This document shows, piece after piece, positions 20,178-64,000 of a stretch of DNA of 64,000 nucleotides (its first letter is position 1; every line of letters begins with the position of its first letter). Below the pieces are notes generated by a model that saw only the letters and a list, made by a program, of their open reading frames with translations, ran no database searches and was not told where the DNA came from. A program made the position numbers and the translations under genes. The stretch comes from an uncultured Planctomycetia bacterium (GTDB lineage: Bacteria > Omnitrophota > Gorgyraeia > Pluralincolimonadales > Pluralincolimonadaceae): NCBI GenBank assembly GCA_964650515.1, contig CAZYUB010000007.1, forward strand, positions 20,837-84,836. Reading direction: 5' to 3'.

Positions 20178-22620
20178 TAACAGGAACAGGCGCGGCGCAG
20201 CCCTGATCATGACGGTGGGGGTGCTCAGCATGCTCGTGCTCATAGGCGTCTCGTTCGCCGCTACTACGCAGGCCATATACAGGGAGGCAAGGAATTACTC
20301 CAATTCCGTGAAGGCGAGATACCTCGCCGAAGCGGGGATAGCGAGGGCGATAGCCGAACTCCGCTGCGGCGCGGAAGGCGCGGTATCGGACGCGGTAGAT
20401 ACGCAGGCGGAGGGCTGGTATGCCGGATATTCCGCCGTTCTCGGCGGCGGCAGGTACCAGGTGAGCGGCACGGATTGCGCGGCCAGGATATATATAAACG
20501 ATACCAACCCGAACCTCAGCGCCATGCTTGAAAACCTCACGGCGGCACTCATATCCATGGACGAGCCGCTTTCAGCCGGGGACGGCGCCGCGATAGTATC
20601 GAACCGGCCGGCCGAAGGTTATATGAGCGAGCAGGAGGTGGAAGAGCCGTTCAGGCCTTACGTTACCGTAAGGGCGTTCCGGGATACGGCCGTCTATTCG
20701 AACGCTTCGCCTTTTCCGGCAGTCCCGAGGGCGCCCGTAAACGTCAATACCGCTTCCAAGCCGGTACTTAAAGCCGTCCTGTCCGGAATAGAAGCGCTGC
20801 ATATGTGCCCGAGGTGCGGAGGCGACGGGACGATATTCGCCGCAAGCGCGTGCCCGGATTGCGGGGGGACCGGCGGCCTAAGGATCACCTCTGCGGAGGC
20901 GGATGGGCTCGCGGACTACATAATTGCGAACCGCCCGTATTCGACATGGGGCCAATTCTATAACTCGATAAAATCCTGCGCAAGTATAGGAGCGCAGGAC
21001 GCGGACCTCGTGATGGCGAACGCGAACCCGAACGCGGGATTCGCGCCCGGGGCGCGCAATTACGGCTGGGCAAGCGGCGCGGGGCGTATCGGCAAAGATA
21101 TCGACCCGGCGGACAGCGGACGCGGCCTTACAACTCACACGACGGAATTCTGTTTCAATTCGGGGGGATATTACGATATCGTCTCGACCGGGACGGTAGA
21201 GGCAGGCGCGGGGACGGTCGTGGCTTCAAGGAGCATAAGGTCTGTCGTGAAGATATTCGATATCTGGAGGCAGACAACGCAGTCGGAATTCCAGGCGGGC
21301 GCCATGAGCGGCCTGCAGAGCTATCCGGAGCCGATAGGCGCGGGCATAGCGCCGGCGGCGTTCGACGGGCAGCTGATGCTCGCGACGAACGAGGACCCGT
21401 CCACCGCCAATACGCTGCTGAGGGCAAGCTTCAACGACGGGCTCGACCTCGATTCGGCGGCGAACGCGAATATCGTCAGGGATCCGGCGAGCACCTGCTC
21501 CGTGGGGAGCGTGGCCGACGCGTCGGACCCGGGCAGCTTACTGCCGGACGGCGTCTTCGTCAACAAAAAGTCCAACGATTACATATCGTTCATGGAGAAC
21601 TGGAGCGGCACCTATAACATGGCGAAGGCGGACATGGGGACGCTTTCGCTCTGGGTCAAAGCCGTATCCGGCGGAGAGGTGTATTCGGGGATGAGCTTCT
21701 CCGGTTACGAGATAGACACGTACGGCAACGGGCATACTGACGGCGGCCCGCCGTGGGATTTTTCGCTCTTCGAGATACACCCGAGCGGCTTCATTCCCGG
21801 CTCTCCGTTCGGCGACTGGAACTGGTGGAGGCCGGGTTACGCGAACAGGACGGAGGTATGGTTCTACGAACAGTGGGACGCCGCCCTGCCCGAGAGGCCT
21901 ATCGGATTTATCGGGTTCCAGGAGGTCGGAAGCGGCATCGGCGGTGGCAACGTCTCGCAGATAATGAGCACAGGCCGCGCGAGGAAGAACTGGGCGCCGG
22001 GCACATGGCACCATGTCGTCTTCACGTATGAATTGAGCAATCCCGCCGACCCGAACTGCATGACGGGGACTAAGAAGATATACATAGACGGCGCCGAGCC
22101 CCCGCATTACGCCTATGACACGATATACCACCGGCTTAACGGCGATGTCCGCGACATTACCCTCGGCACGTCGGACATCAATAACAGCCATTCAGACGGC
22201 ACCTATATAATAGACGAGTTCAGGTCGGAGCACGCCTGCGCGACGGCCGCGCAGGTCATGGCGGAATTCGCGTCCGGCAGATATTACGATAACAGCGACG
22301 CGGAATTCACGTCGTCAGCGTTCGACGCTGGAGAAGCGCGCATCGGCACGGTATCGTGGACTGAACACATGCCCGCGAGTGTCGCCGGAGGCGATATACG
22401 ATTCGATATAGACAACGGCTCGGGATGGCTCGGCGGGTATGCCGCGCGCAACGACCCAGCGGGATCCCCCGTGGACGCGATGACCACCGGGACGAACCTT
22501 ATAAGGTATAAGGCGTATTTCGTGAATTCGGGTACGGGGCTTACCGATACGCCGGTCCTCGATGACGTGACCGTCACTTATTTGAGAAGGGCGGAAATAC
22601 TTTACTCAAGGGAGGAATGA
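20155..22620 (+). CDS. PilX/GspK-like N-terminus (RRGAALIMTVGVLSMLVLIGVSFA) fused to a large secreted domain with a Cys4 knot and a C-terminal LamG/ConA-like lectin domain
   Basis: Minor-pseudopilin-like N-terminus; CPRCGGDG..CPDCGG; WHHVVFTY..KKIYIDG LamG signature; C-terminal RYKAYF..TPVLDDVTVTY module shared with the giant ORF at 59871. Start uncertain (ATG 20155 lies inside the repeats; alternative ATG 20209). Confidence 0.6.
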   Translation: MHWCIQVYNRNRRGAALIMTVGVLSMLVLIGVSFAATTQAIYREARNYSNSVKARYLAEAGIARAIAELRCGAEGAVSDAVDTQAEGWYAGYSAVLGGGRYQVSGTDCAARIYINDTNPNLSAMLENLTAALISMDEPLSAGDGAAIVSNRPAEGYMSEQEVEEPFRPYVTVRAFRDTAVYSNASPFPAVPRAPVNVNTASKPVLKAVLSGIEALHMCPRCGGDGTIFAASACPDCGGTGGLRITSAEADGLADYIIANRPYSTWGQFYNSIKSCASIGAQDADLVMANANPNAGFAPGARNYGWASGAGRIGKDIDPADSGRGLTTHTTEFCFNSGGYYDIVSTGTVEAGAGTVVASRSIRSVVKIFDIWRQTTQSEFQAGAMSGLQSYPEPIGAGIAPAAFDGQLMLATNEDPSTANTLLRASFNDGLDLDSAANANIVRDPASTCSVGSVADASDPGSLLPDGVFVNKKSNDYISFMENWSGTYNMAKADMGTLSLWVKAVSGGEVYSGMSFSGYEIDTYGNGHTDGGPPWDFSLFEIHPSGFIPGSPFGDWNWWRPGYANRTEVWFYEQWDAALPERPIGFIGFQEVGSGIGGGNVSQIMSTGRARKNWAPGTWHHVVFTYELSNPADPNCMTGTKKIYIDGAEPPHYAYDTIYHRLNGDVRDITLGTSDINNSHSDGTYIIDEFRSEHACATAAQVMAEFASGRYYDNSDAEFTSSAFDAGEARIGTVSWTEHMPASVAGGDIRFDIDNGSGWLGGYAARNDPAGSPVDAMTTGTNLIRYKAYFVNSGTGLTDTPVLDDVTVTYLRRAEILYSREE

Positions 22621-36115: not shown

Positions 36116-36135
36116 TCTAGAAAACGGAGGTCTGC

Positions 36136-41560: not shown

Positions 41561-41668
41561 AGGAGCCATAAAAATTCAGGAGCCATCCTCCGGGGGGACA
41601 CCCATCTCAATGCAGCATGTCCCCCCGGAGGATGGCTCCTAGCTTTTTTTGGCTCCTAGCTTTTTTGA
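41561..41668. repeat. REP doublet (REPIN): inverted pair of the unit AAAAA-N3-AGGAGCCATCCTCCGGGGGGACAC with flanking partial direct duplications, between convergent genes
   Basis: Arms 41579-41601 and 41618-41639 are 22/22 complementary. aaaattcaggagccat x2 on the left and ggctcctagctttttt x2 on the right. Confidence 0.75.
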
Positions 41669-45002: not shown

Positions 45003-45005
45003 TTT

Positions 45006-49097: not shown

Positions 49098-49933
49098 GGC
49101 GCTAGTATGTCCGCTATGTTCTTTTCGCTTGCTTTGAATATATAGTACCCGGCAACGAAGACCGTTATTGATATCACCGAAGCTATCGTGATGGAAAGCA
49201 GGTCCGGCGCGCAGTTATGCAACAGCGCCTTCCTGTAGCCGTCGAGGATCCCGGCCATCGGGTTAAGGAAATAATACGGCAGCAGCGCCTTGTCGACCAT
49301 GCCGACCGGGTATCCGACGGGCGAGGCGAGCATCCAGACCTGGAGCAGTATGGGCATCGCGCTTTGTATGTCGCGGAAATAGACGTTCAACACCGAGACG
49401 ATAAGGCACACGCCTATCGTGAACATCAAATGCACCGCAAATACCGGGACCACGTACAGGGCGTTTATCCCCACCGGATAGCCGTAAAGCGCGAATACCG
49501 CCGCAAGCAGCGCGGAAGATACCATGAAGTCCGCGAGCGTCGCGAGCACGGAGCCGAGCGGCACGGTTATCTTGGGGAAGTTGATCCTCGTTATCAGGTT
49601 GAAATTGGAGTTGAGGCAGTTGACCGCGAAACCCACCGAGGACGAGAAGAATATCCACGGGACTATCGCGGTGAAAGCGAAGACCGGATACGGCGCGCCT
49701 TCCGACTGCACGCCAGCGACCTTCGAGAATACGACGGTGAACACCGCCATCGTCATCAGCGGGTTGATTACGGCCCACGCGGCCCTGAGGTACCTTTGCT
49801 TGTACCTTTGCTTGAGGTTGACGAGGCCGAAGGCGATTATGAGCTCGTGCCAGTTCCTGATGCTTGATAAGAGAGAAAATGGGTTAGGCATTTTGATGTA
49901 ATTCATTATATTACAAATATATGCGGGGTTCAA
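49094..49933 (-). CDS. ABC-2 type transporter permease (Wzm/TagG-like)
   Basis: 6 TM segments; ABC-2 family pattern. Confidence 0.8.
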   Translation of the reverse strand: MNPAYICNIMNYIKMPNPFSLLSSIRNWHELIIAFGLVNLKQRYKQRYLRAAWAVINPLMTMAVFTVVFSKVAGVQSEGAPYPVFAFTAIVPWIFFSSSVGFAVNCLNSNFNLITRINFPKITVPLGSVLATLADFMVSSALLAAVFALYGYPVGINALYVVPVFAVHLMFTIGVCLIVSVLNVYFRDIQSAMPILLQVWMLASPVGYPVGMVDKALLPYYFLNPMAGILDGYRKALLHNCAPDLLSITIASVISITVFVAGYYIFKASEKNIADILAP

Positions 49934-49965: not shown

Positions 49966-50748
49966 TCAGAACTTATAGCAGCTCTTTAACTGGAAGTACT
50001 GCCCCTTAGGCGCGTTCTCGGTATGGGTGTCGTAGAGGTACGTGAAAGAGAAGCTCATCCCCCTTATCCGCGTGTAGATATCCCCCCCGACGGAAAACGT
50101 CCTGCGCCCGCTGTTCTTTATCTTGACGCCGTCGCGCCTCTGCTCGCTGCTCATCATCCAGTTTACGGAAGGGCCCATCTTGAGGTTTTTTGCGACGTTA
50201 TACCCGAGGAGATACTGGAGATGGAGCTCATCGCCCGGCGCGATATCCTTGTCGTTCTCGAGCCGGAAATAGTATTTTGCCGCGGCGTCCATGCTGAAAT
50301 CATTTATCGTCTTACTGAAGAATACGACGGGCCTTATGTCGACCTGGTGCGTGCCGTAATTCGTGCTCTTGTCCGAGGCGTATTCGCCGGTAGGCATCTT
50401 TACAAACAGCATAGGCAGGACATCGACTTCCTTGATTGGCAGGAAGTAGCCCGCGCCGGCTGTAGCGTCGCCGAGGCCCCATGAACTCTTGTCCGTAGGA
50501 CGGACCCGTACGCCGCCCGCGGGAAGCAGGGCCGTCACGACGAAGTCCGGGGAATAATAACAGAATCGCAGCAGCTCCTCCGCTTTCAGGAGCTTGTCGG
50601 CCGCATAGACGGAGGAGTAGGTCAGGAAATAGAGGCCTTTCGGCGCACGGGCACCGTCATAGAAGTTTACGGCATGGGAGATATCTGGTATTATAATCAT
50701 CAGGGCGGCGGCGATTGCCGAAGCATAAGACAGGGCTTTAATGCGCAT
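49966..50748 (-). CDS. Outer membrane beta-barrel protein (MetA-pathway/transporter-like OMP family candidate)
   Basis: True start at ATG 50748 (MRIKALSYASAIAAALMII) with an AGGAGG ribosome-binding site. The track ORF is over-extended to 51189, across hemW. C-terminal aromatic residue F. Confidence 0.6.
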   Translation of the reverse strand: MRIKALSYASAIAAALMIIIPDISHAVNFYDGARAPKGLYFLTYSSVYAADKLLKAEELLRFCYYSPDFVVTALLPAGGVRVRPTDKSSWGLGDATAGAGYFLPIKEVDVLPMLFVKMPTGEYASDKSTNYGTHQVDIRPVVFFSKTINDFSMDAAAKYYFRLENDKDIAPGDELHLQYLLGYNVAKNLKMGPSVNWMMSSEQRRDGVKIKNSGRRTFSVGGDIYTRIRGMSFSFTYLYDTHTENAPKGQYFQLKSCYKF

Positions 50749-50802
50749 TGTAAACCTCCTGTATATTAAGTGGTTTACAATTATATAACAACCGGGTGAA
50801 AT

Positions 50803-51930
50803 ATGCAAAAGATATCGCTGTATATACACATCCCATTCTGCGCGAGGAAGTGCGCTTATTGCGATTTCTACAGCGTCGTGTATGATAAGTCCACCGCGGA
50901 TGCCTATATAGATGTCCTCTGCGCGCAAATAGGGAAGATAGACAGGCCGGTCTCGACGGTATTCATCGGCGGGGGGACGCCGACGGTGCTTGAGGTGCCG
51001 ATGATTAGGAAACTGCTGCGCTGCCTCGGGAAGCTTCCCGTGAGGGGCGCGGAGTTCACCGTTGAGGCGAACCCGGAGAGTTTGACCGCGGACAAGATAA
51101 ACCTGTTCCTCGACGAAGGCGTCAACCGGATCAGCATCGGCGTGCAGTCGTTCCGGGACGGCAAGCTCAGGAAGCTTGGCCGCATACATGATTCGAAGAA
51201 GGCAAGGAACGCTGTCCTCTCGGCGGCGAAGAAGGGATTCAGGAACATAAATGCGGACCTGATCTTTGGGGCCCCCGGCGAGGCATTCGAGGAATGCGCC
51301 GCGGAATTCGACGAGGCGGCGGGCCTGCCGTTAACGCACATATCGTGCTATTGCCTGTCGTATGAGAAGGGCACGCCGTTATACGAGGCGAAAAAGAAGG
51401 GCGATGTGGCACCGGTCGAAGATGAATACGCGGCGCAGATGTATTCCTACGCGATGGATTTTCTGCCTAAGAAAGGTTTCAGGCATTACGAGGTCTCGAA
51501 TTTCGCCAAGAAGGGGTATGCCTGCAGGCACAACATCAACTACTGGGAGAACAACGAATATATCGGCCTCGGAGCGTCGGCGGTCACCTATACCGGCGGC
51601 GACAGGATGAGGTACATCCCGGACGTAAAGGAGTATATGGAGAAGGCCTCTTCGGGCGGACGTGCGTTCGTTTCATCGGAGCACCTTATCGGCGAGCGCA
51701 AGGCGAGGGAGACCGCTGCAGTCAAGATCAGGACCGCGGAAGGGATAGATTTCCGCCGGTTCAGGGAGAAGACCGGTTGCGACCTTATGAAACTGGAATC
51801 CGCCGCCATACGCAAGCTCTGCGACGCGGGCCTTGTAAAATTCAGGATGTCCAAATGCAGGAAGGCGGGCATTGCGCTGACGAAGAAAGGGTTTCTTTTC
51901 TGCGACACGGTATCAAGCGAACTGTTGTAG
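50803..51930 (+). CDS. hemW: Radical SAM heme chaperone HemW (HemN-like oxygen-independent coproporphyrinogen oxidase family)
   Basis: LYIHIPFCARKCAYCDF motif. Confidence 0.9.
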   Translation: MQKISLYIHIPFCARKCAYCDFYSVVYDKSTADAYIDVLCAQIGKIDRPVSTVFIGGGTPTVLEVPMIRKLLRCLGKLPVRGAEFTVEANPESLTADKINLFLDEGVNRISIGVQSFRDGKLRKLGRIHDSKKARNAVLSAAKKGFRNINADLIFGAPGEAFEECAAEFDEAAGLPLTHISCYCLSYEKGTPLYEAKKKGDVAPVEDEYAAQMYSYAMDFLPKKGFRHYEVSNFAKKGYACRHNINYWENNEYIGLGASAVTYTGGDRMRYIPDVKEYMEKASSGGRAFVSSEHLIGERKARETAAVKIRTAEGIDFRRFREKTGCDLMKLESAAIRKLCDAGLVKFRMSKCRKAGIALTKKGFLFCDTVSSELL

Positions 51931-52688: not shown

Positions 52689-53273
52689 ATGCCAAGAAAA
52701 CCCAGACATTTGGTTGATAACGGTTTTTATCATATCATGAGCAGGGGCCACAACAAGTGTGAGCTGTTTTATTCGCGAAAGGATTACGAGAAGTATAAGA
52801 ACTTAATCGTTGAATATAAACAAAAGTTTCCTTGCGATATCTACCACTATTGTTTTATGCCGAATCACGTCCATATTGTATTAAAAATAATACGCGGAGA
52901 TGATCTACCGGAACTCATGCAGCGGATTAATCAGGGTTATGCTCGGTATAACAAGAGACTGCGCGGAACAGTCGGAAATCTATTTCAGGGGAGATATAAG
53001 GGCCTTATCATCGAAACGGAGGGGTATTTACTGGAGTGCGGCAGATATATAGAAAGAAATCCATTAAAATCAGGATTAGAGAGCAACCTGCTGCGGTATC
53101 CTTTTTCCAGCTTCAGTTTCTATGTGAAAGGGGATAGAGATGAAATATTGACTCCAAACCCGCTGTATTTAGAGTTGTCCCGCTCCGAAGAGGAGAGGAG
53201 GAGGATTTATGCAGAGTATGTACTCAAGGAAAGGATGGAAGAGCATGTTAAGAGCATTAACTCAGGATCATAG
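52689..53273 (+). CDS. tnpA: IS200-like / REP-associated tyrosine transposase (HUH Y1)
   Basis: HUH motif PNHVHIV with upstream YHIMSRGH and catalytic Tyr region (RYIERNPLK). Confidence 0.85.
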   Translation: MPRKPRHLVDNGFYHIMSRGHNKCELFYSRKDYEKYKNLIVEYKQKFPCDIYHYCFMPNHVHIVLKIIRGDDLPELMQRINQGYARYNKRLRGTVGNLFQGRYKGLIIETEGYLLECGRYIERNPLKSGLESNLLRYPFSSFSFYVKGDRDEILTPNPLYLELSRSEEERRRIYAEYVLKERMEEHVKSINSGS

Positions 53274-53443: not shown

Positions 53444-53713
53444 ATGGGCCTAAAGCAGAAGCTTATATCCGCGCAGGAGATCATCAAGAAGTACGGCATA
53501 ACCTACCAGACCGTCAACCACTACACGAATTTCGGGCTTATCAACGTAATCACCAAGAAATCGAACGTCCGGCTTTACGACGAGGAAGAGGTGGACCGCC
53601 GCCTCACGAAGATAATCCAGCTCGCCGGAGCGGGATTCCCGCTGCGCCTTATCAGGAAGACGCTCAACGACGAGCTCGCGGTGAAGGTCAACACAGGGAC
53701 GGGTGGCGCATGA
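53444..53713 (+). CDS. MerR-type HTH domain-only protein
   Basis: ISAQEIIKKYGITYQTVNHYTNFGLI; ATGA overlap with the downstream ATPase gene. Confidence 0.55.
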   Translation: MGLKQKLISAQEIIKKYGITYQTVNHYTNFGLINVITKKSNVRLYDEEEVDRRLTKIIQLAGAGFPLRLIRKTLNDELAVKVNTGTGGA

Positions 53714-54579
53714 GCTACTTCAAGATACTCGGATTGGAGAAAGAGCCGTTCTCGACAAGCCCCGACCCTGAGTTCTTCTACCAGTCGCCGGAGCATAAGT
53801 CGGCGCTTTACCGGCTGCGCATAGCCATAGAGCTCAGGAGAGGGCTGAGCTTAGTTCTCGGAGATGTCGGGACCGGCAAGACGACGTTGAGCAGGAAACT
53901 CTCGCAGCTTTTGGCCGAAGACCCGGGCCTCGTGATGGCGATGGTCCTTAATCCCGTATATGAATCTGAAAAACAATTTTTAGCGGACCTTTCGGAGCGC
54001 TTCCATATTGTGGTGGATTCGGGGAATGGGAGCGCTCCAACGTTATTGGACTACATGAAGTCGTTCGAGAAGTTCCTGTTCGAGAAGGGAGTGCAGGAGG
54101 ACAAGACGATAGTCCTGCTCATCGATGAATCCCAGAAGCTCAGCGACCCGTGCATGGAGATCCTGCGCGCGCTGCTGAACTACGAGACGAACGAGTACAA
54201 GATCCTGCAACTCGTGCTTATGGGCCAGATGGAGCTCCTGCCGCGGATAAGCAGGATAAACAACCTCTGGGACAGGATTGCGGTCAAGTATTTCATAAAC
54301 CCGCTCGAGGAAGACGAGGTCCGGGAGCTTATAAATTTCCGCCTGCATAAGGCGGGGTATGTCTCGAGAGAGCCGCTCTTCGATGATGCGGCCGTAAGGG
54401 CGGTCTTTAACCATACGCAGGGATATCCGCGCAAGATCGCGATGCTCTGCCACGACGCGCTCGAATATACCGTGATGTACAACAAGCACTGCGTCGACAG
54501 GCAGGTCATACATGACCTTATCCAACGCGAGATGAAAGCGGCGCAGGCATTCCGCTATGTCTCGCAGGCGGCGGGCTGA
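53710..54579 (+). CDS. ExeA/GspA-like AAA ATPase (AAA_22; resembles PEP-CTERM-locus secretion ATPase subfamily)
   Basis: Walker A GDVGTGKTT, Walker B LLIDESQ. About 290 aa, no peptidoglycan-binding tail. Confidence 0.6.
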   Translation: MSYFKILGLEKEPFSTSPDPEFFYQSPEHKSALYRLRIAIELRRGLSLVLGDVGTGKTTLSRKLSQLLAEDPGLVMAMVLNPVYESEKQFLADLSERFHIVVDSGNGSAPTLLDYMKSFEKFLFEKGVQEDKTIVLLIDESQKLSDPCMEILRALLNYETNEYKILQLVLMGQMELLPRISRINNLWDRIAVKYFINPLEEDEVRELINFRLHKAGYVSREPLFDDAAVRAVFNHTQGYPRKIAMLCHDALEYTVMYNKHCVDRQVIHDLIQREMKAAQAFRYVSQAAG

Positions 54580-55255
54580 TATGGCTGACACCGTATCTCC
54601 CGAAGAGAAGCTCTTTAATATGATCAAGGAAGGGAAGGATTCCGGCTCCGGCGGTGGAGTTTCAAAACCGAAGAATTCCTCGGCAGCACTCGGGGGGATA
54701 AAGAAATTCTTCGGATCTTTGAAACTTCACCCCGGCGCTAATAAGCAGGATGCCGCCTCCGCATCCGCGGCGCCCCGGATAGAGATAGACCCGGGGTCGG
54801 TGAACAGGGTGCTGTCGGTAGTCCTGCTGGCGGTCGCGAGCTTCTTCGTATATTACCTTTTCAGCACGCGGCCGGACGCGGAGAAGATAATAAAATCCGT
54901 CCCGAAAACGGATACGTCCCTGAAGGCCGAGGTCGAGAGGTTCGCGCCGCTCGAATCGTACCTCGCGGAGACGCGGAGGAGGAATATCTTCAAGCCGGCG
55001 CCGAAAGACGAGGCAAAAGGAGCGCCGACATCAAGAGAGGCGATGGAAAAACTGAAAGAAGCCGCCCGTGACCTGAAGGTTGTGGGGATCTCCTGGGGAG
55101 AGACCCCGAAGGCGCTGATCCGAAGCGAAAGGGACAAGACGACATATTTCCTGAAGCAGGGCCAGCAGGTCGGCACGACGGACGTGGATATAAGGTCTAT
55201 AACAAAGCAGAAGGTCACTATAGGATACAAGACGGAAGAATTTGAACTGCCTTAA
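54557..55255 (+). CDS. Single-pass membrane protein with C-terminal PilP/GspC homology-region-like beta domain
   Basis: TM segment VLSVVLLAVASFFVYYLF; C-terminal YFLKQGQQVGTTDVDIRSITKQKVTIGYKTEEFEL. Confidence 0.4.
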   Translation: MSRRRRADMADTVSPEEKLFNMIKEGKDSGSGGGVSKPKNSSAALGGIKKFFGSLKLHPGANKQDAASASAAPRIEIDPGSVNRVLSVVLLAVASFFVYYLFSTRPDAEKIIKSVPKTDTSLKAEVERFAPLESYLAETRRRNIFKPAPKDEAKGAPTSREAMEKLKEAARDLKVVGISWGETPKALIRSERDKTTYFLKQGQQVGTTDVDIRSITKQKVTIGYKTEEFELP

Positions 55256-56873
55256 AGGAGAAGCAAATATGAGAAGATACGCAGGGTACGCGCTAATGGC
55301 CGCAACGGTGCTGGTCGCCGCCGCGGCGATATGCCAGTGGCCGCTGCCGCTTTCGGCGCAGGACGTGTCGGGAGAGCCGCGGAAGACGCTTTCGCAGTAT
55401 GATTTCGAGGGGCTGTCGAAGAAGGTCTCGCTCGACCTGCGCGCGATGGATATAGTCGACGTCCTGAAATTCCTCGCGATAGAGGGCAACCTGAATATCG
55501 TCGCAGGCAAGGAGGTCGCCGGGCCGGTCAGCCTGCTCATAAACGACGTCGCCATAGGCGACGCGCTCGAGATGATACTGGCACTTAACAACTTCGCGTA
55601 TGAGGTGCAGGGCGGCATAATCAAGATCCTGCCGGCGAAGGACTACAAGGCGCTCTACGGCGTCGACTTCTACGACCAGAAGAAGACCGTAATACGCCGG
55701 CTGAAATATGCTTCGGCAAAGAACGTAGCCACGATGATGGGAAGCGTCAAGAGCGACATCGGCAAGATAATCTACGACGACTCGACCGGGACGATAGTTA
55801 TGATAGATACCCCCGCGAAGATAGCGGAGATGGAGGAGATAATAAACGCGTCCGAGATGCCGACCGTCACGAGGGTCCTGCCGACCGAGACGAGGGTCTT
55901 CGAGCTCAAGTACGCGCTCGCAGACAATATTAAGGAAGAGGTCAGCAAGTCCCTGACCACGGATATCGGCACGATGCGCCTCGATAAGCGGACGAACACA
56001 ATAGTCGTTACCGACCTGCCGCACCAGATGCAGAAGATAGAGACGGTCATAAAAGCGTTCGACAGGAAGACGCGCGAGGTCTTCATCGAGGCGAAGATCG
56101 TCGAGGTCACGCTCTCCGACATGTTCCAGTGGGGCATCGACTGGAGCTATATATCGCAGTATACGCGCAAAATAAACGGCGAGAACAGGAGTTACCGCAT
56201 AACTCCCGAGGCGAACCTGCCCATCGGGCTTACCGGCACATACGGCCAGCTGACGCTCGCCTCGATAAACACGGCGAACCTCGCGATGACCCTGCAGGCG
56301 CTCGACACTGTCGGCGAGACGAAGATACTTTCGAACCCGCACTTGACCGTCGAAGAGAACAGGGAAGCGACGATCAAGGTCATCGAGAAGCAGCCCTACC
56401 AGCTCGAGACGACGACCACCGCCTCCGGAGGCACCACGACGACATCGAAGAACTACGAGTTCGTCGACGTCGGTGTCACGCTAAACGTGAAGCCGCTCAT
56501 CAACGAGGACGGCTTCATCAGCATGGTCATAAAGCCGGAGGTCAGCTCGATCTCGACATGGTATGGCGGCGCGGCGCAGGCGGCGGGCTCGGTGCCGGTA
56601 GTCAAGTCGGCGAACGCCGAGACGACGGTCACGATAAAGGACGGCGTCAGCATAATCATCGCCGGCCTTATCAAGGATAATAAGACGAAGACGGTCAACA
56701 AGCTGCCGGTCCTCGGCGACCTGCCGCTCGTCGGCCTTCTCTTCAAGAATATAAGCGACGATATACGCAGGACGGAGACGGTCGTATTCCTCACGCCGAG
56801 GATAGTGCACGGCGACCAGCCGTTCCTGATGGAGAGAGACACCGCGAAACCGACAAGGGGCATAAGAGAATAA
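55242..56873 (+). CDS. Secretin (GspD/PilQ family)
   Basis: C-terminal secretin motif LPVLGDLPLVGLLFKN...TETVVFLTPRIV; N0/N1-like domains. Probable start at ATG 55269. Confidence 0.85.
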   Translation: MNCLKGEANMRRYAGYALMAATVLVAAAAICQWPLPLSAQDVSGEPRKTLSQYDFEGLSKKVSLDLRAMDIVDVLKFLAIEGNLNIVAGKEVAGPVSLLINDVAIGDALEMILALNNFAYEVQGGIIKILPAKDYKALYGVDFYDQKKTVIRRLKYASAKNVATMMGSVKSDIGKIIYDDSTGTIVMIDTPAKIAEMEEIINASEMPTVTRVLPTETRVFELKYALADNIKEEVSKSLTTDIGTMRLDKRTNTIVVTDLPHQMQKIETVIKAFDRKTREVFIEAKIVEVTLSDMFQWGIDWSYISQYTRKINGENRSYRITPEANLPIGLTGTYGQLTLASINTANLAMTLQALDTVGETKILSNPHLTVEENREATIKVIEKQPYQLETTTTASGGTTTTSKNYEFVDVGVTLNVKPLINEDGFISMVIKPEVSSISTWYGGAAQAAGSVPVVKSANAETTVTIKDGVSIIIAGLIKDNKTKTVNKLPVLGDLPLVGLLFKNISDDIRRTETVVFLTPRIVHGDQPFLMERDTAKPTRGIRE

Positions 56874-56874
56874 G

Positions 56875-57927
56875 GTGAAGGAGGTGTTGAAAATGAGGAA
56901 GTATTTCGCGCTTTTGCTGCTGTGTTTCATGACGGCAGCGCATGCCGCGGGGGCCGATGACATCGATGACGTCATAAACAGGAACCTAACAATGCGGCAG
57001 CAGGTGGACGCGCTCGAGACGAAATGTTCGTCGCTCGAGAACGAGAGGGATGTGCTTATCTCGAGGGTAAAGGAGCTGCAGAGGAAGAACGACCTGCTCG
57101 CGAGAGGCGAGGCCGCCAAGGGCATAACCGTGACCCCGGCGGAGCTCAACGAGCTCAAGAAGAAGCTCGACGACGCATCTAAGAGACTCTCTTCCGTCAT
57201 GAAGGAAAGGGAAGCGATGCAGAAAGACCTCGATAAGGCGAATAAGCAACTCTCAGACGTGGATAAGAAGATCGCCTCCGAGGTCCAGAAGAGGATGAAG
57301 GACATAAAGGCCGCGCCGGCGGTCTCCGACAGGTCCGAGGCGATCAGGGCTCTTCAAAAAGAGAATGCGGCCCTGCAGGACGAGATCAAAGGCCTGAAGG
57401 ACGCGTTGAAAAAACAGGGACAGCCGGAAGCCTCCGGGCAGAGGAGCGACGCGAAGCCGGTAAAGATAAGAGAGGCCCAGGGAGGGCCGGAGGATATCTT
57501 GCAGGCCGAGGTCCTGAGGGTCCAGCTTGACAAGCTCGAATCCGACCTGAAGAACGCGCAGAAGAACGCGGAAGACGCGAAGAAGGAGAAGCAGGCCGCG
57601 GCGGCGCAGGCGAAGAAGATGAAGATCAAGACAGATAAGGAGAGGCTCGACATGCATTTCAACCTCGCGGTCGTATATGAGAAGAACGGCATGTATGCCG
57701 ACGCGGAACGGGAGTATTACAAGTGCCTCCAGCTGGACCCGAACGACGCGGAAGTCCATTATAACCTCGCCATCCTCTATGACGACAGGATGAACAAGAC
57801 GAGCGCCGCGCTCGTGCATTACAAGAGGTACCTCGAGCTGAGGCCGAAAGGCGAGAGCTCGGAAGAAGTCAGGCAGTGGATATTCAACGCCGAACAGGAG
57901 GCAAGATTGGGAGTGGAAGCGAGATAG
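56875..57927 (+). CDS. Secreted coiled-coil + TPR protein (pilotin/PilF-like candidate)
   Basis: Signal peptide, long Ala/Lys/Glu coiled coil, C-terminal TPR repeats. Confidence 0.5.
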   Translation: MKEVLKMRKYFALLLLCFMTAAHAAGADDIDDVINRNLTMRQQVDALETKCSSLENERDVLISRVKELQRKNDLLARGEAAKGITVTPAELNELKKKLDDASKRLSSVMKEREAMQKDLDKANKQLSDVDKKIASEVQKRMKDIKAAPAVSDRSEAIRALQKENAALQDEIKGLKDALKKQGQPEASGQRSDAKPVKIREAQGGPEDILQAEVLRVQLDKLESDLKNAQKNAEDAKKEKQAAAAQAKKMKIKTDKERLDMHFNLAVVYEKNGMYADAEREYYKCLQLDPNDAEVHYNLAILYDDRMNKTSAALVHYKRYLELRPKGESSEEVRQWIFNAEQEARLGVEAR

Positions 57928-59115
57928 ATGAGGATAAGCTTCGCGGTATTATACGCGTTGGCCATAATAGTCCCGACGGCGCTCTTGGCGTATTTCGGCC
58001 TGCTGGCGGTGCGCAGCGAGAAGTCGATCGTCGAGAGGAACATGATGCAGAAATACGAGGCGATGGCAGGCCTCGTGGAAGGCGAGTTTAATAAGGCGCT
58101 CTCGGAGTCGCAGAAGGACCTGCTCGATAACCCGAAATACGTCGAGCATATGATAATAGAGCAGTCGGCTATATTCAAGGAGGACGTCGCGATACTCGAC
58201 CTGAACGGCAAGTCGCTCAGCGACGAAAAGGGATCGAAACCGGTCTTCGTAAAGCAGGTAAATGGATTTCCGTACCAGATCGCGGTATACGAGCGTTACC
58301 CGGTGGTCCTAAGCAAGATAAACGAAAGGCGGCAGAACCTATCCTTATATATCGGCATCATATACATATCAGCGTTCATGATATTAAGCGGGGCGTTCGT
58401 CACGCTCTGGGCGCTGTCGAGGCAATGGAACCTAGCGCACTTGAAGAACGAGTTCGTCTCGCACCTCGCGCATGACCTGCGCAGGCCGCTGACCTCGATA
58501 CGCATGTTCTCCGAGATGCTCAAGACCGGCCGTGTCGCGGACGACGGGAAGAGGGTGGAATATTACGGCATAATATCGAACGAGAGCGAGAAGCTCACGC
58601 TGCTCGCTAACAATATACTCGATTTCTCGCGCATAGAGATGGGGCGCAAGAATTACAGGATAAAGAAGGAAGACATCGCGCGCATAGTCAACGAGACGGT
58701 GGACAGGTTCAGGTCGTATATGGTCGACGTCCCCCGCCAGGTCTCGGTGGATATCGAGGAAGGCCTGCCGCCGGTCAACGCCGACGAGAGCGCTATATCG
58801 CAGGTCGTGATGAACCTGCTTACGAACGCGGCAAAATATTCCTCGCAGGACAGCATCATCAGCGTGAAAGTCGCGCGGACGGACAGGAACGTCGCGGTCA
58901 GCGTCGTCGACCACGGCATAGGCGTCCCGAAGAACGAGTTAAAGAGGATATTCAGGAAGTATTATCGCGTCGAGCAGGACAAGGTCTCAGCTACAGAAGG
59001 CAGCGGACTCGGGCTGACGCTTGTCAAATATATCGCGGAAGCCCACGGCGGGCAGATCCGCGCGGAGAGCGAGGAAGGGAAAGGCAGCAGGTTCACGCTG
59101 ATATTGCCTATATAA
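57928..59115 (+). CDS. Sensor histidine kinase (2 TM segments, periplasmic sensor, HisKA + HATPase_c)
   Basis: H-box LAHDLRRPLT; N, G1 and G2 boxes (NAAKYS, DHGIGV, GSGLGL). Confidence 0.88.
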   Translation: MRISFAVLYALAIIVPTALLAYFGLLAVRSEKSIVERNMMQKYEAMAGLVEGEFNKALSESQKDLLDNPKYVEHMIIEQSAIFKEDVAILDLNGKSLSDEKGSKPVFVKQVNGFPYQIAVYERYPVVLSKINERRQNLSLYIGIIYISAFMILSGAFVTLWALSRQWNLAHLKNEFVSHLAHDLRRPLTSIRMFSEMLKTGRVADDGKRVEYYGIISNESEKLTLLANNILDFSRIEMGRKNYRIKKEDIARIVNETVDRFRSYMVDVPRQVSVDIEEGLPPVNADESAISQVVMNLLTNAAKYSSQDSIISVKVARTDRNVAVSVVDHGIGVPKNELKRIFRKYYRVEQDKVSATEGSGLGLTLVKYIAEAHGGQIRAESEEGKGSRFTLILPI

Positions 59116-59116: not shown

Positions 59117-59797
59117 ATGCATAAGATACTTGTAGTCGAAGATGACAAGAACATCCTGAAGGGGCTAGTCGACAACCTCGAGATGGAGGGCTATAAGGTC
59201 GTGACGGCTTCGGACGGCGAGGCCGCGCTCAGGAAAGCGAAGGAGGCCGCGCCGGACCTCGTCATACTGGATATCATGATGCCGAAGATGAACGGTTTCG
59301 ACGTATGCAGGCAGCTCAAGGCGAAGGGCAGCACGACGCCGATCATCATACTGAGCGCGAAGGCGCAGGAGGCCGACAAGGTGCTTGGCCTTGAGCTCGG
59401 CGCCGACGACTATGTGACCAAGCCCTTCAGCCCCAGGGAGCTGCTGGTGCGCGTTAAGGCGGTGTTGAGGAGGGCGGGCACGGCGGCGAAGGTCAAGGAC
59501 GTATATGACCTCGGCGGCATCAGGATAGATTTTAACAAATACCTTATATATAGAGGAAGCAAAGAAGAGAAGCTCACCGCGGCGGAATACAAGATATTGA
59601 AACTACTTATTGCCAACGAAGGTGAGCCGGTCAGCAGGCACACGATACTGGCGGAGATCTGGGGCGAGGATGTGACATCCCGCACGGTCGATACCCATAT
59701 CTGGAGCTTGCGAGAGAAGTTGGAAGAGGATCCGGGGAAGCCGAAGCATATCGTTACGGTGCACAGGATAGGGTATAAATTCTTGACAAGTTCTTGA
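59117..59797 (+). CDS. OmpR/PhoB-family response regulator
   Basis: Receiver domain (DD, D54 in LDIMMP, K) plus winged-helix domain (Trans_reg_C). Confidence 0.9.
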   Translation: MHKILVVEDDKNILKGLVDNLEMEGYKVVTASDGEAALRKAKEAAPDLVILDIMMPKMNGFDVCRQLKAKGSTTPIIILSAKAQEADKVLGLELGADDYVTKPFSPRELLVRVKAVLRRAGTAAKVKDVYDLGGIRIDFNKYLIYRGSKEEKLTAAEYKILKLLIANEGEPVSRHTILAEIWGEDVTSRTVDTHIWSLREKLEEDPGKPKHIVTVHRIGYKFLTSS

Positions 59798-59799
59798 CA
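59780..59799 (+). promoter_or_regulatory. Perfect direct repeat TTCTTGACA x2 with 11-bp periodicity (OmpR-family-type box candidate)
   Basis: 59780-59788 and 59791-59799, overlapping the response regulator stop codon and 72 nt upstream of the giant ORF. Confidence 0.45.
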
Positions 59800-59870
59800 G
59801 TATATTGAGATGGGGATGACAACAAAATACGAAGGATATGGCATGCTTGTAGCAGACAAAGGAGCTTACA

Positions 59871-62800
59871 ATGAATAAATCCGGTTACCGGTTTACTACG
59901 GTTGTATTGAGCTCGATACTTCTGCTTCTGAGCAGTGCCTATCTTTACATGGTATGGGCGGTGGAGACGAAGGCGTGGGATTTCGCGACGGCCTCGGATT
60001 ATACCGTCTATAAGGGCGACGGCACCGAAGATACCTCAAATACGGATATTATAATCGAGGGCGGGGTAGCCAAACTTGTATCGAGGACGACACAGATAAG
60101 CGACGATACCCAGGCCGAATATGATACCGGCGCGTATTCCTCGACATCTCCGCAGGGGCAGGACGTTTCGCTCATGCTTACGAAAAGCGGCTCGACCTAC
60201 AGCACCTCGGGTACATTCACATCCCGTGTTTTTAACGGCGCCGCAGGAAATACGTGGCAAAGGCTCTCCGCCTCACTGCAAAGCCGCGTTAATATGACAG
60301 GGCTTAACTGGACAAAGGTGGCAGGAAATCCGACCTATGCTAATGCGGTAATCTATTGGGTATATACGGGATGGTCGGACGATGGGCCAGGTATGCCTTG
60401 TGTAATCAAGGACGGCGCAGGCTATAAGGCCTACTGGACCGATTCCATCTATCGTGTTAACACCAGGTTAGGAGGTCCGGCAACATCAGATGACGGTATA
60501 ACCTTCACAAAAGTCCAGGATGTCTGCCTTGGGTTGGGCGCGGCGGGCAAATTTGACAATACCTATATCCAGTCACCCTGCGTCATTAAGGATGATACCG
60601 AGAGCGACCCGGCAAAAAGATATAAGATGTGGTATGGCGGATACGCGACCATAGGTGTCGCAGCCTGGAGGATAGGTTATGCCACTTCTGCCGACGGGAT
60701 AACATGGACGAGACAGACCGGCCCCAATACAGGCGGATCCGTGATCGACATAGGGGTAGCGGGAGACGCGGACAGCACGGGCGTTTATTTCCCGTGGGTC
60801 ATCAAGGACGGCTCGACCTACAAGATGTGGTATATGGGCACGAATGGTATAGGGTATCACCTGATGTATACCTGGTCGACAGACGGGGTAAACTGGTGCG
60901 ACGAATACGGCGCGTCCAATAAAAGAATAGCCATGTATAGCGGAGAAAACCGGTTCGACCTTTACCAGCATTATTATCCATGCGTGATCAAAGATGGTTC
61001 GCTTTATAAGATGTGGTATACAGGATACGCCGCCGGCGCATCCAGCAACGCGACCCTTGCCAGTTTCTACCAACGCATCGGTTATGCCATATCTTACGAC
61101 GGGATAAACTGGACGACGATAAACGGGGCACTGACTTCAGGATGCGTTATTGACCGCAGTACCGGATCTTGGTTTGACAGCAACTGGGCCGCGATGCCAT
61201 GCGTCATAAAGGAGGAAGACGGTTCTTATAAAATGTGGTATGCGGGTTATTATGGTTCCAATCGTCGGATAGGCCTTGCCACAAGCGCGGTAGATACCGC
61301 TGCCTCTACCGCGGTACGTTTCCAGGTCCGTTCAGGCGCCTCGGCCAGCTTGACCGGAGATTTCGTAGGCCCGGACGGCACAACATCGTCATATTATATT
61401 ATAGACAATGCTTTGCCTCCTCCCCATGGCCAAGGTTACAACACCTTGTATTGGAATACGGACAGCGTGTATTTCCCTAAGAGCGCGGCGCTTATCAACG
61501 TTCCCGGAAAGTTTAGCGTAACCGACCAGTATGTCCAGTACAGGGCATATTTTGACGGTGCCGCCGACGGCTCGCTCACTCCTACGGTAGATTGGGTCGC
61601 TTTTGAAGGAACAGGCGCCACAGGGTTTGATAACACGCTGGGAGATTTTAATAAAGGAACGCTTGCGGACGTAACCACGACTTATTCCGCGGACGGACAG
61701 GAGCCCTATATCGGCCTCGCGAAACAGCCGAACGGGCTGTATCATCCGTCCGGCACTTACACAAGCGCGGTATTCGACGGCGGCGCGGACGCCGATTGGG
61801 ATTCTGTATCATGGTCGGGCGGGAGCCAGGCGATAAGCCCGCCGGAACCCGGCCTGGTAGGACTGTACCATCTTGACGGGAATGCCGACGATTCATCCGG
61901 CAGGGGAAACCACGGGACAGCCAGCGGGACCGTTTCCTATGATACGACGGTAAAGAAATCGGGTTCGGCATGTTTTATAGGCAACGGGAACGGCTATATA
62001 ACCCTCCCGGCAACGCTCTATGAGTTTAAGGCGATGACGGTCTCGGCGTGGGTATTTTTTAACAGCACCGACACAAGCCCCGGGGGGCTTGTTGTATCAA
62101 GCTACCAGACGCCCACTTATGACAGCTTTTATTTATCTGCTTATCCGTATTACGTTTCCGCCGTAATAAAAGACCTAGGAAATGCGAGCCAAAGAAGTAA
62201 TACTATCTACTCCACACCGACGCCTTTTGGCGAATGGCATCATGTGGCGTTCACATGGGACGGCACGCCAAATGTCAATTCCCTTAAGATATATATGGAC
62301 GGCAGGGAGCAGATAAGCAAAAGCTATGACTCGCCCAGCATTGTTTTCAGGTGTATACGCAATTTTACTTCGATACCGATACATATAGGGCATTACTATT
62401 ATAGCGCTGCGCCGGCAACGCATTATTATTTTAAAGGCAAGATAGACGAAGTGGCTATCTACGACAGGGCGCTTTCGTCCGATGAGATAGACCTGCAGTA
62501 CAAGCGCGCCGCCGACATAAAATTCCAGTGCCGCTCAGGAGATGCGAATCCGCCCACAGGGAATTTCGTCGGCCCGGACGGGACGATATCAAGTTATTAT
62601 GCGACTTCAGGCGGCTCGACTTTCGGGAGCGAGATACCAACCGGCCGCTATTTCCAATACAGGGCATATTTTGAAGGGGCCGGCGCTAATACCCCCGCCC
62701 TGAAGGATGTGACGGTATCATACAATTCGGCCTCTTTCACGGATGACACAAGGACGGAATTCGACCTGGGCAGCTATGACAATTCTACCACCAGATGGTA

Positions 62801-64000
62801 TGGGGACCAGATAAGCCTTACATGTAAACCGCAACCGTTCCCCCTGGCAATAGATAGTGCGGAGACCGGCCTGCTCGCGCTCCTGCATATGGACGGAAAC
62901 TGGAACGACTCGTCAGGCAATGGAAACCACGCGACAGCACCAACCAACGTTCCGTACTTTACAACGTTTGCGAAAGTAGGGACTCAAGCCGGAGCGTTCT
63001 TTGGTGCCCACTACGCAACATTGCCTAATCTGGACCTTCCGGGATCGTCCACTATAGAATTCTGGGCCAATGACTCATACACCTTTAACTCCCATAATTC
63101 GTGTGAGCTTTACAGCGATTATAATAGCGTAACGGCAAAGGCCCAGCATCGCATATATACAACATCCTCCAACCAGCAGATAAGATTTAGCCAATACCAT
63201 ACGGACGGGTCTGCTTTGACCCTGGCTACTGTTCCAAGAAATCGCGGATTCGACACCGTATGGCACCATATAGCGGTCGTAAGGGATGACGCCGCGAAGA
63301 CGGTCGTCCTGTATGTAGACGGCAAACCCGAAAAGGCGGACAGTTATGCCGGTAAAGAAGTCGTCTCGGGCGCAACGGCCGGTAATGAAACCATAGGCAG
63401 GCTAGGAGACGTCGCGCAGAACTATGCGTACATGATCATGGACGAACTCGCCGTATATGACCGCGCGCTGACGCCTGAAGAGATCGCCCGGCACGCGGGT
63501 ATCGGCTACCCGCTACACGGCACTAATACCTTTACATCACGGACAATGGATGCCGGCCTGAGCGTAACATGGAATGATATACTTTGGAAAGAGAAAGTCC
63601 CGGGGTACGGTAACGAATTATCGGCTGAATCGACGCAGAGGGAGCTCACGTCCGAAGCGCCGGGCATAAAGGGTCTCTGGCATATGAACAACGTATGGGA
63701 TGATTCCTCGGGAAGCGGCCGCAACGGCCTTGCCCAGGGAGACGCTACTTTCGATGCCGCAGGAAAGAAGATAGGCAGCGCGTGCGGGATCTTTGACGGG
63801 ACAGGCGACTATGTCCAGGCGAGCTTAATAAACCTCGGTGACATAAAGACGGTGGAGTTCTGGGTAAATGTCACGACGAACACCCGTCCGATAATAGAGA
63901 TCCTTAACGATATGGTATATATATCGTCAGATTCCAGCAATAGGATAATAACGACAGGGTTCACGAGTCCGGTCGTATACATAAACGGAAACCAATATTC
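59871..64000 (+). CDS. Giant secreted/surface protein, 3'-partial (at least 1376 aa): N-terminal signal anchor, five PCVIKDG..YKMWY blade-like repeats (beta-propeller, GH-like fold), three LamG/ConA-like lectin domains, two FVGPDGT..YRAYF..TP.L.DVTV.Y modules
   Basis: Verified codon by codon that the frame has no stop from 59871 to the window end. The track omits it because it has no stop codon. AAAGGAG ribosome-binding site 7 nt upstream. Confidence 0.85.
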   Translation, partial: MNKSGYRFTTVVLSSILLLLSSAYLYMVWAVETKAWDFATASDYTVYKGDGTEDTSNTDIIIEGGVAKLVSRTTQISDDTQAEYDTGAYSSTSPQGQDVSLMLTKSGSTYSTSGTFTSRVFNGAAGNTWQRLSASLQSRVNMTGLNWTKVAGNPTYANAVIYWVYTGWSDDGPGMPCVIKDGAGYKAYWTDSIYRVNTRLGGPATSDDGITFTKVQDVCLGLGAAGKFDNTYIQSPCVIKDDTESDPAKRYKMWYGGYATIGVAAWRIGYATSADGITWTRQTGPNTGGSVIDIGVAGDADSTGVYFPWVIKDGSTYKMWYMGTNGIGYHLMYTWSTDGVNWCDEYGASNKRIAMYSGENRFDLYQHYYPCVIKDGSLYKMWYTGYAAGASSNATLASFYQRIGYAISYDGINWTTINGALTSGCVIDRSTGSWFDSNWAAMPCVIKEEDGSYKMWYAGYYGSNRRIGLATSAVDTAASTAVRFQVRSGASASLTGDFVGPDGTTSSYYIIDNALPPPHGQGYNTLYWNTDSVYFPKSAALINVPGKFSVTDQYVQYRAYFDGAADGSLTPTVDWVAFEGTGATGFDNTLGDFNKGTLADVTTTYSADGQEPYIGLAKQPNGLYHPSGTYTSAVFDGGADADWDSVSWSGGSQAISPPEPGLVGLYHLDGNADDSSGRGNHGTASGTVSYDTTVKKSGSACFIGNGNGYITLPATLYEFKAMTVSAWVFFNSTDTSPGGLVVSSYQTPTYDSFYLSAYPYYVSAVIKDLGNASQRSNTIYSTPTPFGEWHHVAFTWDGTPNVNSLKIYMDGREQISKSYDSPSIVFRCIRNFTSIPIHIGHYYYSAAPATHYYFKGKIDEVAIYDRALSSDEIDLQYKRAADIKFQCRSGDANPPTGNFVGPDGTISSYYATSGGSTFGSEIPTGRYFQYRAYFEGAGANTPALKDVTVSYNSASFTDDTRTEFDLGSYDNSTTRWYGDQISLTCKPQPFPLAIDSAETGLLALLHMDGNWNDSSGNGNHATAPTNVPYFTTFAKVGTQAGAFFGAHYATLPNLDLPGSSTIEFWANDSYTFNSHNSCELYSDYNSVTAKAQHRIYTTSSNQQIRFSQYHTDGSALTLATVPRNRGFDTVWHHIAVVRDDAAKTVVLYVDGKPEKADSYAGKEVVSGATAGNETIGRLGDVAQNYAYMIMDELAVYDRALTPEEIARHAGIGYPLHGTNTFTSRTMDAGLSVTWNDILWKEKVPGYGNELSAESTQRELTSEAPGIKGLWHMNNVWDDSSGSGRNGLAQGDATFDAAGKKIGSACGIFDGTGDYVQASLINLGDIKTVEFWVNVTTNTRPIIEILNDMVYISSDSSNRIITTGFTSPVVYINGNQY

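Follow-up and report, generated by a model that had tools for sequence, protein, structure and literature searches.

A secretin and two-component regulatory locus lies towards the end of a 64,000-nucleotide stretch of contig CAZYUB010000007.1 (positions 20,837 to 84,836), which comes from an uncultured Omnitrophota bacterium (assembly GCA_964650515.1) and is referred to in its full length as the window. It is followed by a large gene that starts at position 59871 and that we consider probably to be the truncated gene for an exported surface protein of about 3,600 residues with a lectin-type head. Once exported, the protein would most likely be either displayed at the cell surface or extracellular. 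As read from its ortholog, it would consist of a Sec-type signal peptide or anchor, a sugar-binding head, an immunoglobulin (Ig)-like stalk of 11 repeats, and, at the C-terminus, roughly 460 residues of helical sequence. The head would be made of three copies of a host module, each interrupted at one loop, by a five-bladed β-propeller, by one LamG domain and by two LamG domains, respectively, with an extra LamG domain in the hairpin linker before the third copy. Omnitrophota are uncultured, very small bacteria with huge surface proteins, to which a role in attachment to hosts or prey is ascribed but whose size and poor annotation stand in the way of study. Large multi-domain exported proteins encoded beside secretion genes are already known in the phylum, and this gene adds one more. 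The window itself is chromosomal and of Omnitrophota origin; it carries dnaX, recR, and pyruvate:ferredoxin oxidoreductase genes, and every relative of its DnaX that bears a name belongs to Candidatus Omnitrophota.

The gene consists of one stop-free frame of 1376 codons on the plus strand (59871–63998, in the translation of 59871–64000), and the sequence AAAGGAG forms a ribosome-binding site at 59858–59864, six bases 5′ of the ATG at 59871. Both the uninterrupted frame and the good ribosome-binding site had been proposed in a preliminary description of this DNA, which had also remarked that the frame was absent from the accompanying list of open reading frames (ORFs). It is truly unlisted, but this is a mere artefact of a listing rule that drops ORFs running off the source. 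The nearest database relative is an 80% identical protein from an Omnitrophota metagenome-assembled genome (MAG), labelled P0001 (P-numbers denote proteins throughout, whereas L001 and L132 denote related contigs). Codon comparison of the large gene with L001, the contig of P0001, gave a nucleotide identity of 77.6%, with 59% of the synonymous sites differing, a synonymous divergence (dS) of 1.16, a nonsynonymous divergence (dN) of 0.125, and a dN/dS ratio of 0.11. The large gene is therefore under strong purifying selection and is a real gene, not a chance frame; the same ratio rules out a pseudogene. A frameshift, named in the preliminary description as a way in which its reading could fail, was not seen. 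Residues 1–1376 are colinear with the ortholog P0280 in a single alignment block of 79.6% identity, which rules out an assembly frameshift. No nucleotide tandem repeats were found within the large gene, and the repeats in the protein are therefore old.

The ortholog also indicates what lies beyond the end of the window. P0280 comprises 3599 residues and is the second member of the 90% cluster of P0001; its complete gene, with a stop codon at the end, occupies positions 1213–12012 of L132. The L001 contig was the sole close relative found in scans for related loci, and exact-pattern scans of genome and metagenome contigs gave no match. Because the colinear ortholog ends at 3599 residues, the window part most likely represents some 38% of a gene whose product has approximately 3,600 residues. 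In P0280, the third LamG domain is complete (residues 1270–1447), and the C-terminal part of the third host module follows after two LamG domains (residues 1694–1735). After the fourth LamG domain come 11 tandem Kre9/KNH-like Ig repeats (residues 1856–2952), then a β-rich stretch, and finally some 460 residues of helical sequence rich in Ala, Thr, and Lys, for which a PDB search returned nothing significant. No PEP-CTERM signal or C-terminal anchor was found in P0280, and Pfam detected no SecA, C39, or S8 domain. Its gene is followed in L132 (12037–14479) by genes for a 189-residue protein without family matches and a 629-residue GGDEF diguanylate cyclase, and then by ATP-synthase genes. The GGDEF gene recalls the cyclic di-GMP genes reported 3′ of Omnitrophota giant genes.

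The preliminary description had called the gene giant, a label that the complete ortholog does not sustain. Omnitrophota proteins described as giant exceed 30,000 residues (West-Roberts et al. 2023, bioRxiv 10.1101/2023.11.21.568195), and a catalogue of long proteins begins at 10,000 residues (Nielsen and Lui 2026, bioRxiv 10.64898/2026.06.07.730766). A length of 3599 residues is smaller than that of the giants by an order of magnitude. The giant-gene loci nevertheless resemble this one in part. In those of West-Roberts et al., secretion genes and a Rotamase_2 peptidyl-prolyl isomerase (PPIase) gene lie upstream (bioRxiv 10.1101/2023.11.21.568195), and the locus described here shares with them the phylum and a large exported protein encoded after secretion genes that include a gspD-type secretin. 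The orthologous loci in L001 and L132 additionally share the Rotamase_2 PPIase gene directly upstream and, in L132, the GGDEF gene downstream. Nielsen and Lui (2026, bioRxiv 10.64898/2026.06.07.730766) likewise report secretion or pilus genes adjoining 13 of 14 giants, and describe LamG-rich long proteins in the phylum. The tandem-repeat scaffolds treated there resemble the present protein in that repeated PF13385 domains occur in a long, exported protein with secretion or pilus genes at its flanks. The present protein differs in its smaller size, in the combination of four LamG domains with a propeller, a stalk of Ig-like repeats, and a helical tail, and in the nesting in host modules, of which the sections consulted give no description. 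These points would fit the start of a true giant gene of more than 10,000–30,000 residues, of the archaeovorin or tandem-repeat-scaffold type, serving prey attachment and wall digestion. We regard this as highly improbable and have rejected it because the ortholog matches the entire part in the window colinearly, ends at 3599 residues, and is followed by ordinary genes. P0280 is about ten to twenty times shorter than the giant proteins, has one hydrophobic segment instead of many, and is devoid of their SecA-DEAD, C39, S8, dockerin, and glycosyltransferase content; moreover, the window contains no PPIase gene.

The architecture of the head became apparent from a module of about 97 residues, a β-sandwich with the pattern G.[FL]tS.vfD.G..W..I.W ... 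R.G ... RY.QYRA.. ...TP.L..V.i.Y. A profile hidden Markov model (HMM) of the module was built solely from homologs outside the window and searched against the 498 stop-to-stop ORFs of the window, where it matched only two, the large gene (E = 3e-22) and the ORF of a GspK-like pseudopilin (E = 1.6e-4). The module is thus indeed common to the large gene and the PilX-like protein encoded at 20155–22620, as the preliminary description had claimed. That description had, however, counted two copies of it; the domain is real, but its occurrences in the large gene are not simply a tandem pair, being parts of a split host domain, and the PilX/GspK-like protein has one copy. In many homologs the module is contiguous, typically directly after arrays of propeller blades, whereas the matches in the large gene are fragments with complementary profile coordinates (Table 1). 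Between the fragments lie the guests: the propeller in module 1, LamG 1 in module 2, and LamG 3 in module 3, which in P0280 holds two LamG domains.

Removal of the guests in silico restores a continuous match. Module 2 without its guest scored 50.4 bits over profile positions 1–97, compared to 34.3 bits for its C-terminal part alone, and module 1 without its guest and an extra loop scored 31.6 bits over positions 1–93, compared to 15.9 bits for its C-terminal part alone. When every 30-residue segment was tried as a candidate N-terminal part, three sets of peaks fell at the N-terminal-part sites, and the remaining peaks were pieces of the C-terminal parts. The same split, with a LamG guest of 230–250 residues at profile positions 24–30, recurs once each in P0122 (Saganbacteria) and P0123 and two times in P0188, these split cases standing against 441 contiguous copies in the proteins compared. 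Profile coordinates hence show that the module acts as a split host, which takes up other domains always at the same loop (profile positions 24–30). The family is large, with 9,574 cluster representatives at E values up to 0.001 and up to 12 copies per protein, and yet profile searches found no match in Pfam-A (E up to 10) or among PDB sequences. P0188 is a protein from a Woesearchaeota MAG (PLW80806.1, 3754 residues, partial), in which a LamG domain, the N-terminal part of the module, a further LamG domain, and the C-terminal part of the module form a unit that recurs at least three times, with the split at the same profile positions. It differs from the window protein in its archaeal origin, in having eight LamG domains and no propeller, and in that the similarity is limited to the domain families. 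On the evidence of these profiles, the nested module architecture is common to different domains of life. As for the GspK-like pseudopilin, its gene (20155–22620) stands alone, with no pilus or type II secretion operon around it, and the protein carries a CxxCxGxG zinc-ribbon-like insert (residues 216–242) and a degenerate LamG domain.

Pfam matched Laminin_G_3 (PF13385; 128.6 bits against a cutoff of 27.6, E = 2.9e-37), and the three LamG domains named in the preliminary description were recovered by an independent LamG profile built without window sequences, which matched residues 656–958, 997–1210, and 1260–1342; the third domain is cut by the window end. LamG 1 was modelled with a predicted local distance difference test score (pLDDT) of 70–93 across the domain. 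The top fold match of the model is domain 4 of AbnA (5hon; E = 2.7e-11, TM-score 0.74 on the target, 22% identity), a carbohydrate-binding domain of an arabinanase; the HCN domains of clostridial neurotoxins, which are lectin-like, come next. LamG 1 has the jelly-roll fold in common with both, and differs from them in being inserted inside another domain.

The guest of module 1 had been likened in the preliminary description to the five-bladed propellers of the GH32/43/130 type, and here an AlphaFold model, Foldseek, and a profile search agree. The model of residues 95–600, which is confident over approximately 172–475, comprises five four-stranded blades. In a Foldseek search of the PDB, the propeller model matched BT_0996, GH117, GH43, GH130, and GH32 structures at E values of 1e-11 to 1e-9; the entries 9fj8, 7fip, 5a7v, and 3qc2 matched at 1e-9 to 1e-8. 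The propeller sequence profile found GH117 at 4e-21 and GH130 at 4e-20 in the PDB. The blades start with P-[CW]-V-I-K-[DE] at residues 176, 236, 308, 370, and 443. The five repeats of the preliminary description therefore correspond to real blades, although their spacing is 60–73 residues and not about 50. In addition to the fold, the window propeller shares with the GH130, GH117, GH43, GH32, and BT_0996 proteins the blade pattern WD...V..P.V...G.Y.M.Y.G ... IG.A.S.DG..W.

Where the window propeller departs from the GH130 and GH117 enzymes is in the residue preceding the blade proline. In an alignment with BpGH117, the Asp of the GH117 motif HDP, which we take to be catalytic, occupies exactly this position, where the five blades of the window protein have M, S, F, Y, and M and those of P0280 have T, T, H, W, and T. 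None of the five blades of either protein has an acidic residue there. The acidic catalytic residues that GH43 and GH117 enzymes carry where the innermost strands begin (D-P and E-G-P) are likewise missing, as judged by motif alignment only. GH130 enzymes use as their catalytic acid an invariant, essential Asp in an E/Y-D-P motif (BT3780 D142, UhgbMP D104, BfMGP D131; PMC4599007), and alignment with the GH130 enzyme Teth514_1788 places EDPR on AMPC at residues 441–444 of the window protein. Because the acidic residue of GH130 and GH117 is missing before the blade proline, we hold with moderate confidence that the propeller serves binding rather than catalysis, and read the head in the same sense. 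We infer that the propeller would lack catalysis and that the head would bind glycans, resembling a lectin with several binding sites for polysaccharide or cell-wall glycan rather than an enzyme.

The alternative is an active carbohydrate-processing enzyme, i.e., a divergent hydrolase or phosphorylase with a non-canonical catalytic set that would use the LamG domains as binding modules and work alongside the cellulose/β-glucan enzymes encoded in the window. The similarity to GH117, GH130, and GH43 in fold and profile is clear, LamG domains do act as binding modules in enzymes such as AbnA, and GH94, GH9, GH3, and CBM30 genes are present in the same window. Furthermore, GH130 catalysis can be atypical, as exemplified by BT3780 (PMC4599007), the relatives P0006 and P0029 pass the Pfam GH130 threshold, and the JGI annotates homologs as members of the GH43/DUF377 family. 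The window protein itself, however, reaches only 20.7 bits with Pfam GH130 (PF04041), below the cutoff of 26 bits, and no single stretch of it passes. The blades are near-identical repeats, and relatives contain up to 16 recognisable ones per protein, which is typical of repeat scaffolds and not of single active sites; the remainder of the protein is stalk and helical region. Together with the lack of the acidic residue in all five blades of both the window protein and its ortholog, this makes an enzyme unlikely, and we retain the binding head.

The N-terminus agrees with an exported protein. Residues 8–26 are the sole transmembrane-like segment of the window protein, as proposed in the preliminary description of a signal anchor, and the full-length P0280 similarly has a single N-terminal segment. 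The same residues can be read as a class III prepilin-type signal (MNKSG/YRFTTVVLSS), in which case the protein would be a pilin-like fibre subunit, a lectin tip assembled by a pseudopilus through the adjoining secretin. The Gly ahead of the hydrophobic segment is conserved in the window protein and P0280, there is a secretin upstream, and the cassette of LamG and module recurs with pilin-type N-termini in the GspK-like protein of the window, in P0131 (prepilin-type), and in P0133 (annotated as pseudopilin PulG). However, no N_methyl or pilin family match was obtained at E values up to 0.1, the residue at +2 is Arg and there is no Glu at +5 (G/YRFTTVV), a plausible signal peptidase I site (VWA/VE) is conserved, and the window contains no gene for a prepilin peptidase, an assembly ATPase, or a platform protein. 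A pilin-like subunit is accordingly quite improbable, and a Sec-type signal or anchor is preferred.

The claim that the large gene adjoins a secretin/two-component block has held up, and the synteny is conserved in L001: the order of the genes for the bitopic protein, the secretin, the tetratricopeptide repeat (TPR) protein, the sensor histidine kinase, the response regulator, the PPIase where present, and the large protein is kept there, with protein identities of 62–86%. In L001 (4830–5760) and L132 (223–1212), the regulator is separated from the large gene by the Rotamase_2/EpsD-like PPIase gene; in L132, a response-regulator fragment is also found 5′ of the P0280 gene. In the window, the PPIase gene is absent from this position without remnant. 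On the strength of the conserved gene order alone, passage of the large protein through the outer membrane by the adjoining secretin is plausible. No gspE or gspF gene was seen in the window.

Several further elements surround the 5′ end of the block. An 89-residue ORF at 53445–53712 (YGITYQTVNHYTNFGLI...) encodes a protein resembling MerR/excisionase-type helix-turn-helix proteins. This ORF runs into the 5′ end of the AAA_22 ATPase gene and seems to be the first gene of the secretin operon; upstream of it, at 53338, TTGACAAGTT occurs in AT-rich sequence. Directly 5′ of the secretin block is a gene for a Y1 transposase of the IS200/IS605 type (52689–53273). The model that comes closest to the AAA_22 ATPase encoded from 53710 is TIGR03015, for the ATPase of the PEP-CTERM system (E = 4e-50, below the cutoff of that model). 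A protein with a PEP-CTERM sorting signal and a CBM11/30-like domain is encoded at 23521–24276; the window has no exosortase gene.

Between the block and the large gene, TTCTTGACA occurs at 59780 and 59791 as a perfect direct repeat in 11-bp phase, which had been described as lying 72 nt upstream of the gene and does end 71–72 nt before the ATG. This perfect two-unit pattern has a single occurrence in the window. The repeat overlaps the last codons and the stop of the response-regulator gene, and extends as two further phased hexamers to a series of four (Table 1). All four hexamers are kept in L001 and L132, where the upstream gene encodes the PPIase, not the regulator. The similarity of the window to these contigs starts exactly at the first hexamer and extends over some 94 nt, with 7 mismatches, as far as the ATG; within the gene, by contrast, 59% of the synonymous sites differ.

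Regulators of the OmpR/PhoB family bind tandem direct repeats at 10–11 bp spacing. As the hexamers are conserved in the ortholog despite a different upstream gene, they are probably a candidate operator, and since 11-bp phased repeats match the binding geometry of OmpR/PhoB proteins, the adjacent regulator is the obvious candidate for binding them. Like PhoB and OmpR operators, the region has four head-to-tail hexamers at exact 11-bp spacing upstream of a gene and beside an OmpR-family regulator gene; it differs in that the TTGACA hexamer equals the σ70 −35 consensus, so that part of the signal could be promoter elements. A consensus scan of the upstream region revealed no terminator and no −10 element at consensus spacing. 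The leader had no Rfam match, a tRNA being the only one in the whole window, and showed no stable fold (z = +1.14). At the junction (59776–59800), the regulator ends in GYKF|LTSS*, its last four codons and stop being read from the first two TTGACA repeats, which places the end of the regulator gene within the putative operator of the regulator itself. Transcription of the large gene would most likely be driven from the conserved four-hexamer region by the adjacent OmpR/PhoB-family regulator, presumably bound at the hexamers, together with the periplasm-sensing kinase, and the product may then cross the outer membrane via the adjoining secretin.

Table 1. Features of the large gene, its control region, and the adjoining locus, in window positions. 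Residue numbers refer to the protein in which the feature lies.
Feature	Position	Strand	Basis or remark
Single contiguous host-module copy, C-terminus of GspK-like pseudopilin (residues 717–809)	22303..22581	+	HMM positions 3–96, E 1.6e-4
ExeA/GspA-like AAA_22 ATPase	53710–54579	+	
Bitopic 232-residue protein	54557–55255	+	
Secretin	55242–56873	+	
Periplasmic coiled-coil and TPR protein	56875–57927	+	
Sensor histidine kinase	57928–59115	+	2 transmembrane segments, ~115-residue periplasmic loop
Response regulator, OmpR/PhoB/RpaB type	59117–59797	+	
Four TTGACA-like hexamers in 11-bp phase (TTGACA 59783, TTGACA 59794, TTGAGA 59805, ATGACA 59816)	59783..59821	+	Candidate operator/promoter region
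5′ leader, including AAAGGAG (59858–59864)	59822..59870	+	Lies in the 62-nt stretch preceding the ATG, with 100% identity to the ortholog
Signal peptide or signal anchor (residues 1–31)	59871..59963	+	Basic n-region, ~20-residue hydrophobic core, possible VWA/VE cleavage site
Host module 1, hairpin and N-terminal part (residues 77–138; FTSRVFNG..W)	60099..60284	+	HMM 1–23 at residues 113–134; splice peak at starts 106–112
Five-bladed β-propeller (residues 140–478), inserted in module 1	60288..61304	+	AlphaFold, Foldseek, profile against PDB
Host module 1, C-terminal part with extra ~40-residue loop (residues 479–582; VRFQVRSG..FVGPDGT..YVQYRAYF..TPTVDWVAF)	61305..61616	+	HMM 29–92 at residues 478–576
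Host module 2, hairpin and N-terminal part (residues 585–652; YTSAVFDGG..WDSVSW)	61623..61826	+	HMM 1–24 at residues 627–649; splice test
LamG/ConA-like jelly roll 1 (residues 656–878), inserted in module 2	61836..62504	+	PF13385, LamG profile, model
Host module 2, C-terminal part (residues 879–955; IKFQCRSG..FVGPDGT..YFQYRAYF..TPALKDVTVSY)	62505..62735	+	HMM 28–96 at residues 878–951, E 3.6e-13
LamG domain 2 (residues 997–1210), between hairpin 956–985 and the N-terminal part of module 3	62859..63500	+	Profile E 1.1e-31; Pfam
Host module 3, N-terminal part (residues 1217–1250; FTSRTMDAG..WNDILW)	63519..63620	+	HMM 3–32 at residues 1220–1248; C-terminal part beyond window
LamG domain 3, N-terminal half (residues 1260–1376)	63648..63998	+	E 2.3e-12, profile positions 13–103; cut by window end

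Several observations weigh against this picture of an exported, lectin-headed surface protein under the control of its neighbours. The large gene is cut by the window end, and its length is taken from the ortholog. The AlphaFold models have pLDDT values of only 30–74 in the parts of the host module, and the nested fold rests on profile coordinates. The argument from catalytic residues concerns sequence motifs, not a superposed active site, and approximately 15% of the blades of homologs carry Asp or Glu before the proline, so that some relatives may be enzymes. The consensus scan of the upstream region shows no σ70 promoter. Finally, a secretin with accessory proteins is all that the window contains of a type II or type IV system, neither an inner-membrane platform nor an assembly ATPase being encoded, and the export route given here for the large protein is accordingly tentative. 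A more far-reaching reading, which we put forward tentatively and consider rather doubtful as a whole, is that the 97-residue module is a widespread uncurated host that displays guests, either a propeller or one or two LamG domains, from one fixed loop, and that the lectin-headed stalk of 3.6 thousand residues is a small, tractable cousin of the giants in the same type of secretin/PPIase locus, with its own two-component system and four-site operator to switch it on and with delivery to the surface by the neighbouring secretin.

Elsewhere in the window, a cluster for cellulose/β-glucan use at 24420–39226 encodes a GntR/LacI-type regulator, a GH94 cellobiose-phosphorylase-like protein, several CBM30/CBM11 proteins, a GH9 protein with CBM30, a GH39-like protein with CIA30, an ECF σ factor with a putative anti-σ factor, and a GH3 protein with a PA14 insert. 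Such a cluster would be unexpected if the organism were purely a predator or episymbiont. On the minus strand, a glycan-synthesis cluster at 41639–49933 encodes three GT4 glycosyltransferases, a radical SAM protein, a large GT2 protein, and an ABC-2 exporter pair. Next to it, two Pfam-matched ORFs, one for a MetA-pathway outer-membrane-like protein (49966–51189, minus strand) and one for a HemN-like radical SAM protein (50803–51930, plus strand), overlap by about 390 nt; one of the two start codons has probably been set too far upstream.

Three features of this locus are of some interest, namely a propeller that lacks the Asp, a widespread uncurated module that is used in nested form, and a control region whose four hexamers are sharply conserved. 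The results define a common domain of about 97 residues outside Pfam-A that is able to carry insertions at a fixed loop, which helps to annotate thousands of large metagenomic proteins. If the more far-reaching reading given above is true, the gene offers a handle on how loci of the secretin/PPIase type export very large proteins. With the readable architecture of its ortholog and its conserved control region, it would be a practical model for studying the ligands, the regulation, and the possible export through the adjoining secretin of the large surface proteins of Omnitrophota.

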